Positions 5,860-5,994 of a DNA stretch of 9,076 bases are shown piece after piece. Positions within the stretch are counted from its first letter, which is position 1. Each line of letters opens with the position of its first letter. The position numbers and the translations under genes are program-made. The notes under the pieces were generated by a model. It saw only the letters and a program-made list of their open reading frames with translations, made no database searches and was not told where the DNA came from. The stretch is from a virus. Taxonomy: Duplodnaviria > Heunggongvirae > Uroviricota > Caudoviricetes. The stretch is from IMG/VR virus record IMGVR_UViG_2703718872_000004; one strand, 5' to 3'.

Positions 5860-5994
5860 TCACCCCACCAGTCCCGATAACGTCAGGACTCTCCAGGCGG
5901 TGGAAAAGAAAATGGCAACCAGCATGACTAAAAATGAAATGCCGACGATTACACAGAGGATCTTCGCCAGCGTTATGAGTTTATCCGATATCAT
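5860..5994 (-). CDS. Candidate micro-ORF, 44 aa, single predicted TM helix (MISDKLITLAKILCVIVGISFLVMLVAIFFSTAWRVLTLSGLVG); not in the ORF track
   Basis: Hand-translated. ATG at 5994 lies 14 nt after the Ant-like stop, with GGAG/GGTGG SD-like sequence between them. Its stop at 5860 is 8 nt before the Rz start. Uses two rare ATA codons. Confidence 0.3.
   Translation of the reverse strand: MISDKLITLAKILCVIVGISFLVMLVAIFFSTAWRVLTLSGLVG

Follow-up and report, generated by a model that had tools for sequence, protein, structure and literature searches.

Several of the small membrane proteins encoded in phage lysis cassettes, such as S21 68/71 of phage 21, LydD of P1 and LysA of P2, set or modulate the timing of lysis, and in P2 the lysA gene is located between the endolysin gene and the Rz-equivalent gene. 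Holins carry a charged, hydrophilic C-terminal tail and usually have two or more transmembrane domains (TMDs); LysA has four. A different set of very small proteins, comprising AcrZ, MgtS, Hok, Ldr and TisB, is shorter than 50 aa and consists of a single hydrophobic helix; where the mechanism of AcrZ- and Hok-type peptides is known, they bind larger membrane proteins or perturb the membrane. Finally, the Mu releasin gp25, a DUF2730 protein of 99 aa, adopts an N-out/C-in topology, carries its function in a 73-aa acidic cytoplasmic domain and also promotes release of the 933W SAR endolysin (PMC9239132). Set against these systems, the 44-residue peptide described here appears, by analogy, to resemble the small membrane-protein lysis modulators most, while being a member of none of them.

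The peptide is encoded in a stretch of 9,076 nucleotides, hereafter the window, which is the late region of a Stx-phage-like lambdoid prophage. All genes around the micro-ORF lie on the minus strand, in the order: C-terminal part of a NanS-p-like esterase, DUF1378-like gene, DUF826-like gene, holin, lysozyme, ant, micro-ORF, Rz with embedded Rz1, KilA-N protein, phrog_875 protein, and small and large terminase subunits. Embedding of Rz1 in Rz is the established arrangement for lambdoid phages; in the window, the o-spanin lipoprotein Rz1 (5468..5653, minus strand; MLMRLSKVSVLMFLLVVSAC...) occupies the +1 frame of the i-spanin gene Rz (5415..5852, minus strand; Phage_lysis PF03245, 2.6e-35) and is contained in an ORF spanning 5468..5683, its lipobox VSAC being recognized by inspection and its start codon inferred. 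Upstream in the cassette, the holin (7394..7609, minus strand; Phage_holin_2_1 PF04971, 8.6e-33) is an S21-type class II holin, i.e. a pinholin, of 71 codons with a dual-start MYQM. The lysozyme (6856..7389, minus strand; Phage_lysozyme, 6e-25; N-terminus MSRKFRYGLSAVVLALIAAGASAP) is an R21/933W-type SAR endolysin, and the 933W R protein is itself listed as a SAR endolysin (PMC9239132). Directly 5′ of the micro-ORF lies the antirepressor-like ant (6009..6581, minus strand; P22_AR_N, 9.1e-44, plus ORF11CD3; phrog_524), and directly 3′ of it lies Rz.

A scan for terminator-like sites placed a hairpin after Rz/Rz1 (5364..5384, minus strand), and a promoter scan from the holin to this hairpin returned no promoter-like site. 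Ant, the micro-ORF and Rz therefore appear to form one transcription unit, and the micro-ORF would be expressed from the Q-dependent late transcript. The tight packing within a lysis cassette that a sequence-only reading of this DNA had pointed out is borne out in that the micro-ORF is tightly packed in the late/lysis operon.

The surroundings of this operon hold further features. Another terminator-like hairpin (7648-7677, minus strand), with 13 pairs followed by TTTATTGTTG, is placed between the DUF826-like ORF and S, ~40 nt 5′ of the holin start. Antirepressor-type genes are found on both sides of Rz, the P22_AR_N gene (6009-6581) upstream and the KilA-N gene (4719-5252) downstream, and the products of both end in an ORF11CD3 domain (6.2e-06 and 2.8e-13, respectively). 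The window Rz (5415-5852) is an uncommon mosaic variant with the usual N-terminal TMD, MNRVLCVVIIV; it is 54-60% identical to the Rz of most sampled Stx phages and 95-100% identical only in the loci L013-L015, L021 and L031-L034.

The micro-ORF itself (5860..5994, minus strand) runs from an ATG at 5994-5992 through 44 codons to a TGA at 5862-5860 and encodes MISDKLITLAKILCVIVGISFLVMLVAIFFSTAWRVLTLSGLVG, a PHROG 4906 member and predicted single-pass membrane peptide. The 14-nt gap that had been reported between the ant stop (TGA 6011-6009) and its ATG (5994) was recovered, as was the SD-like GGAG/GGTGG, with GGAG at 6007-6004, 9 nt 5′ of the ATG, and GGTGG at 6002-5998. On its 3′ side, the spacing to Rz is as tight as had been described, but 7 nt intervene (AAGAGAG; 5853..5859, minus strand), the earlier figure of 8 being a count of positions. 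Ribosomes probably bind for Rz within this spacer, so that coupling by termination and reinitiation is possible, and the tgaAAGAGAGatg junction between micro-ORF and Rz is identical in 81 of 93 loci.

The frame stays open further 5′, reaching an ATG at 6009-6007, which forms a TGATG with the overlapping ant stop, and a TTG at 6012; many public records call a product of 48-50 aa from these upstream starts. The leader from the ant stop to the conserved ATG (5995..6012, minus strand), which holds the GGAG and the alternative in-frame starts, varies considerably. Its 5-residue extension in the window allele, MEWWL, is shortened or interrupted in other alleles, and between ATG 6009 and ATG 5994 an in-frame TAG occurs in 3 of the 83 ant-context loci and a 3-nt deletion in 52 of the ant-context loci. 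Ant-less cassettes, in turn, have a strong GGGAGG 7 nt before an ATG-TCA-GAC that is homologous to window ATG 5994. Because of this GGGAGG and of the indels and TAGs in the leader, ATG 5994, the start picked in the sequence-only reading, is the universally available start; as far as the alleles allow one to judge, the extension 5995..6012 is dispensable for the micro-ORF and the 48-50 aa annotations are probably over-extended. An Ant::peptide fusion produced by programmed frameshifting at TGATG was considered and rejected, as inspection found no slippery sequence and three loci carry the TAG. In an exhaustive protein search, the 80-aa protein P0072 (…ADTGKGNITLVKSLCVLVGISF…) came up as a singleton in which the C-terminus of Ant is naturally joined in frame to the peptide; here, a deletion took out the ant stop together with the first micro-ORF codons.

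Whether such a short frame is a gene cannot be read from its length, which is unremarkable. A 44-codon open frame is expected in random sequence with a P of about 0.12, and rare ATA codons are used, two of them, at codons 2 and 7, both points that speak for the caution expressed earlier that this may be a chance ORF. With a P of about 0.12 the ORF alone is not significant, and it is therefore the comparison with relatives that makes the case for a gene. For this purpose, 93 ORF-bearing loci were collected from IMG/VR, GenBank phages and E. coli chromosomes, with divergent copies added later. The frame is intact in all 93 of them, which represent 16 distinct DNA alleles. The check by which the sequence-only reading would have been refuted was thus run, and the same ant-Rz junction in related prophages shows no stops and no frameshifting indels; the sole indel among the alleles is the in-frame ATA codon 2, which ant contexts have and ant-less ones lack. 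When all allele pairs are summed, the micro-ORF frame has a pN/pS of 0.36 and zero stops, as compared with 0.93 and 1.33 for the remaining sense frames and 0.51, 0.89 and 1.50 for the antisense frames, of which the first is also open. Individual pairs give the same picture: the window and L007 differ by 12.5 synonymous and 5.5 nonsynonymous changes (Fisher p 8e-5), and the comparisons of the window with the divergent L097 (p 3e-4) and with L092 (p 5e-4) each yield a pN/pS of 0.33. In the tail, the residues RVLTLS are constant while synonymous changes accumulate, and the 5′ half of the micro-ORF is near-invariant (pS 0.17 vs 0.34).

The open antisense frame corresponds to a plus-strand ORF at 5900-6118, which might be taken for the real feature given that it is stop-free across the alleles at a pN/pS of 0.51. 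However, it opposes the direction of the operon, overlaps ant and lacks an SD, and that it is open is what NUN-rich hydrophobic codons usually produce on the opposite strand. The sense frame, by contrast, has the lowest pN/pS, is kept despite different flanks, is preceded by a strong SD in ant-less contexts and is backed by published RIBOseq data and a PHROG family. The earlier proposal of a cistron rather than a spacer is upheld by the intact frame, the purifying selection, the ant-less SD and the RIBOseq signal, and we consider it highly probable that the micro-ORF is a real translated gene.

One lineage evolves differently. At L099 3749-3880 (also in L100 and L101), a peptide of the sequence MSGKLTKLAEILWIIACISFSATLAAFLLSMAWMALSSSGLVG differs from that of L004 by 17 nonsynonymous and 3 synonymous changes; across the same pair of loci, the neighbouring holin has accumulated 16 synonymous changes and 0 nonsynonymous ones, and pN/pS in the lysozyme is 0.12. 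The prophage hosting L099 is a remnant, with IS66 adjacent and Rz joined to tail/lom genes. As judged from these substitutions, the L099-L101 lineage is compatible with neutral drift and would indicate relaxed or diversifying evolution. Reading relaxed selection in L099 as proof of a lytic-cycle function was rejected, since 17:3 is not clearly different from neutral, and the comparison with the neighbouring genes is only suggestive, as their values reflect older divergence.

The micro-ORF is already known, both to the databases and to one RIBOseq catalogue, and finding it is not new. Its description as uncalled is true for some records: among GenBank phage records it is called in some and missed in many, including Stx phages. 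Yet many phage entries, and all RefSeq E. coli rows sampled from a genome survey, list it as a hypothetical protein, and it was called by PGAP as well as by the Sakai annotation. In the latter record, the 147-nt ORF ECs_1966 (NP_309993.2, E. coli O157:H7 Sakai) is situated between the antirepressor ECs_1965 and the Rz gene ECs_5727 in prophage Sp10. The window product is a full-length match to PHROG 4906 (E 1.5e-33, residues 2-50 vs profile positions 1-49 of 49), and a divergent allele matches it as well (4.5e-21). Members of this family comprise ECs_1966, XECs191 and WP_001280929/932/935, and the window gene has the same family and the same place, between ant (or small ORFs) and Rz, as these, from which it differs in nothing of substance.

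Evidence for translation comes from Hücker et al. 2017, who listed the 933W-type allele (MMGWLMISDKLITLVKSLCVLVGISFLVMLVAIFFSTAWRVLTLSGLVG) as the novel gene XECs191, with a transcriptome RPKM of 30.0, a translatome RPKM of 12.6, an RCV of 0.43 and a coverage of 0.55 in LB, weaker values in BHI and a predicted inner-membrane location with one TMH (PMC5597208). These RIBOseq data are supportive rather than conclusive because the signal is weak, the cultures were uninduced and the strain has several near-identical copies. In the searched paper texts, neither ECs1966 nor XECs191 was found to be mentioned; the peptide is not listed in the EDL933 RIBOseq supplement, nor is it discussed in the Stx-phage genomics papers examined.

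In terms of distribution, 1235 of 5426 complete E. coli genomes contain micro-ORF DNA, which occupies 3319 places in total and as many as nine in a single genome. Among Stx phages, identity of the peptide is 93-100%, and the 301 nt around the micro-ORF are 98-100% identical to many Stx1-/Stx2-converting phages and to Shigella phage POCJ13. Beyond these, a word-indexed search of 5.8 billion proteins returned E. coli sequences only, an exhaustive profile search of 1.84 billion representatives gave 28 hits, all of them PHROG 4906-type peptides or fragments, and a one-genome-per-species bacterial scan had as its sole match a 328-bp 'Xanthomonas pisi' contig with a 100% identical ORF. Based on these searches, the family is therefore confined to temperate phages of E. 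coli/Shigella, without detectable relatives. The Xanthomonas contig (L089; NZ_JPLE01000251.1, 'Xanthomonas pisi DSM 18956') contains the ant-ORF-Rz junction with the TAG in the leader and is almost certainly a contamination of the assembly. Searches of the peptide against Pfam, NCBIfam, PADLOC and the PDB returned zero matches.

That the product is essentially one TM helix, as had been suggested, agrees with the structure prediction. AlphaFold2, run on a 19-sequence alignment, yields one continuous helix from residue 2 to 43 (pLDDT 89.8), within which the best 19-residue segment, residues 12-30, is very hydrophobic. Its mean Kyte-Doolittle hydropathy of 3.14 compares with 1.91 for the SAR segment of the endolysin and 1.70 for the most hydrophobic TMD of the holin; being far above the SAR segment, it suggests a stable membrane anchor and not a releasable SAR-type segment. 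The N-side flank, MISDKLITLAK, contains two Lys and the C-side flank one Arg, which in the window allele is R35 (codon AGA) and which most alleles lack. From this Lys/Arg distribution, the positive-inside rule predicts an N-in/C-out orientation, with the N-terminus in the cytoplasm and a tail of ~10 residues in the periplasm; the C-terminal tail, WRVLTLSGLVG, includes one basic and zero acidic residues. On the strength of these predictions, the product is very likely a single-pass inner-membrane peptide.

Within the helix, K5, L6, I7, L9, A10, K11, L13, C14, V15, I16 and V17 are invariant or nearly so, as are G18, F21, M24, V26, W34, S40 and G41; position 22 is Ser in most alleles and Leu in the window. 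A10, C14 and G18 share one helical face with i, i+4 spacing, and such a stripe would correspond to the usual signature of a helix-helix packing surface.

Judged by its sequence features, the peptide falls outside the holins, releasins, spanins and type I toxins. A charged C-terminal domain is absent and zero holin matches were obtained from Pfam/NCBIfam; in contrast to holins and to LysA, it has one TMD and a ~10-residue tail that is not highly charged. With its 44 aa, all of them helix/TMD, and no Pfam match, it also differs from the DUF2730 releasins. Mu gp25 is alike in being a small membrane-anchored protein whose gene lies within a few genes downstream of that of a SAR endolysin, whereas the micro-ORF peptide is devoid of an extramembrane domain, has the opposite predicted topology and gives no DUF2730 match. 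The ~10 residues beyond the TMD and the lack of a PF03245 match set it apart from the i-spanins, in which an N-terminal TMD is followed by a long periplasmic coiled coil that binds the o-spanin, and from its neighbour Rz. With regard to type I toxins, which have a promoter of their own and an antisense RNA partner, Rfam returned zero matches in the window and no promoter-like site was found near the micro-ORF; compared with AcrZ, MgtS, Hok, Ldr and TisB, the peptide is unrelated in sequence, comes without an antisense/sRNA partner or its own promoter, and is encoded by a gene embedded in a phage late operon. What it shares with S21 68/71 (phage 21), LydD (P1) and LysA (P2) is that all are small membrane proteins of lysis cassettes (PMC9025707).

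A look at other cassettes indicates how freely the gene travels. It stays downstream of the endolysin gene and co-oriented with it, though the DNA upstream is entirely different, comprising three unrelated contexts (ant, a 60-aa ORF or a 'D' mini-ORF), and several Rz variants occur. The window and most Stx phages have the order R-ant-ORF-Rz; many other lambdoid prophages have R, the 60-aa ORF, the micro-ORF and Rz; and a third group has R, the 'D' mini-ORF, the micro-ORF, two more mini-ORFs and Rz. Two other ORFs separate the micro-ORF from Rz in L092, L094 and L095. The gene can also be missing altogether, as in L096 (R-D-Rz) and in K-12 Qin, where the endolysin gene rrrQ directly overlaps rzpQ (Rz). 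Since closely related lysis cassettes function without it, the gene is accessory. The small proteins of K-12 Qin (YnfR, YnfS and others) were discarded as candidate homologues, Qin having zero such ORF.

The most divergent homologue, P0070 (MSDKMVKLAQILCVITGLSFSVMLVAIFISTTWQVLSLSGLIGG), resides in a phiP27-type cassette (L097/L098). In L097, this cassette encodes Phage_holin_8, Phage_holin_3_7 and a soluble GH108 endolysin, and the homologue comes after an unrelated ANT-domain gene and a 'D' mini-ORF and before a small lipoprotein gene; near it, no Rz/spanin gene was called. phiP27 possesses the same cassette without ANT, D or the micro-ORF, and the ANT-D-ORF block in L097 therefore looks inserted. 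The lipoprotein whose gene directly follows the peptide gene in L097 (4140-4322; L32 of phiP27, L102 2319-2474) is ~60 aa long, with …LLVGC followed by VSLDK… and three Cys in the mature part, and in the phiP27-type stretches examined no Rz-like gene was called.

Other mini-ORFs between endolysin and Rz were noted at L004 2304-2486, L094 2249-2502, L096 2404-2499 and L097 3861-3998. They form an array of 60-aa ORFs (phrog_1115/4493), 28-aa ORFs abutting Rz (phrog_4493) and 32-45-aa 'D' ORFs (phrog_6632); 'D' is unannotated in L096, and in the window the slot is occupied by ant instead of the array. The endolysin-Rz slot seems to collect interchangeable mini membrane peptides. Homology of the micro-ORF peptide to two of these mini-TM ORFs, B60 and D, was rejected at hhalign probabilities of 1.8% and 0.3%, respectively. 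Ant-less cassettes additionally have a strong terminator-like hairpin (L004 2238-2270) ~90 nt past the endolysin stop and before the small ORFs and Rz, whose stem of 14 bp (AAAACCCCGTTTGTTGGCTGCAAGCGGGGTTTT) runs into a T-rich tail; it is absent from the window, in which the ant module replaces that DNA.

The explanation that we favour, and that as a whole we hold to be reasonably probable, is an accessory inner-membrane peptide of the late operon that modulates envelope disruption. Translation would start at ATG 5994, probably fed by ribosomes ending at the ant stop and by the GGAG SD, and with its stop 7 nt before the Rz ATG the micro-ORF could hand ribosomes on to Rz; going by the spacing, its translation may well be coupled. 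The resulting 44-residue peptide, a single very hydrophobic inner-membrane helix made late in infection, would pack against other membrane helices along the A10-C14-G18 stripe and thereby adjust when, or how efficiently, the envelope is disrupted as the lytic cycle ends; this tuning effect would be independent of the type of cassette. The involvement in lysis or envelope disruption as such, which the sequence-only reading had raised in the form of a lysis regulator or spanin-associated factor, is suggested by the unvarying place of the gene after that of the endolysin in the late operon and is put forward tentatively.

A role acting specifically on Rz is distinctly unlikely. Initial hints in its favour were the 7-nt distance to the Rz ATG in 81 of 93 loci, the near-invariant 5′ half of the micro-ORF and the co-variation of its 3′ half with the 5′ end of Rz; this co-variation would most simply reflect linkage. 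The L097 homologue, accompanied by other holins and a soluble endolysin and with no Rz called, argues against a function specific to Rz or to the SAR endolysin; the peptide thus would not be a dedicated partner of pinholin, SAR endolysin or Rz and behaves like portable accessory cargo. A bolder version of the favoured explanation, namely that the peptide founds a class of TMD-only lysis modulators whose A-x3-C-x3-G stripe docks on the TMD of the holin, the TMD of the i-spanin or a host factor and thereby shifts the lysis clock and Stx release, is improbable on present evidence.

This portability also feeds the main rival, according to which the gene is a moron that sits in a permissive slot after the endolysin and whose product is directed at a host membrane component that has no part in lysis, for instance in superinfection exclusion or in interference with a transporter or receptor. 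The endolysin-Rz hotspot holds ant and at least three unrelated families of mini-TM ORFs (phrog_1115/4493, phrog_6632), the ANT-D-A block of L097 is an insertion relative to phiP27, and the gene moves between types of lysis cassette, all of which fits such cargo. Yet the gene has no promoter-like site of its own, and in the late operon it invariably runs in the same direction as its close-set neighbours; therefore, exclusion expressed in the lysogen would not obviously be served; moreover, the peptide has no match among the PADLOC defence models at E up to 1, and expression in uninduced Sakai is low. The seeming loss of constraint in the decayed prophage of the L099 lineage likewise fits a lytic-cycle function better, albeit weakly. 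On balance, we regard a cargo role unrelated to lysis as rather doubtful.

A second rival holds that only the act of translation matters, in that it delivers ribosomes to the Rz start or unmasks it, the peptide being irrelevant; such a coupling leader would have arisen after insertions broke an ancestral R-Rz overlap. The 7-nt gap between stop and start before Rz in 81 of the 93 loci would suit this reading, as would the direct overlap of endolysin and Rz genes in K-12 Qin and a hairpin in the window whose stem brings together the IFFS codons and the Rz SD (dG -35.8 kcal/mol, z -2.06). However, this hairpin is unconserved, at -7.9 kcal/mol with a covariation term of +0.25, i.e. no covariation, and the amino-acid sequence is under purifying selection, as exemplified by RVLTLS. 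In addition, the L097 homologue precedes the small lipoprotein gene and not Rz, and two ORFs intervene before Rz in L092, L094 and L095. We give little credence to a pure translational-coupling role, which these comparisons make unlikely. An RNA element was rejected on similar grounds, with zero Rfam matches in the window, the unconserved Rz-SD hairpin and an unstructured leader region. The weakest alternative, a chance ORF in a spacer or the antisense ORF as the real feature, is effectively refuted by the comparative data above.

For annotators, records that omit the micro-ORF or extend it to 48-50 aa could be harmonised. For phage biology, its interest lies in its place in the Stx-phage lysis cassette and in its abundance in E. 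coli. If TMD-only modulators of this kind are real, the mini-TM ORFs of phrog_1115/4493 and phrog_6632 would be analogous, interchangeable tuning peptides. Moreover, Stx exits the cell when the phage lyses it, so that any peptide making lysis earlier or later would change burst size as well as the release of toxin, and, should such modulators exist, the timing and amount of Stx release would be shifted in about a quarter of E. coli genomes.
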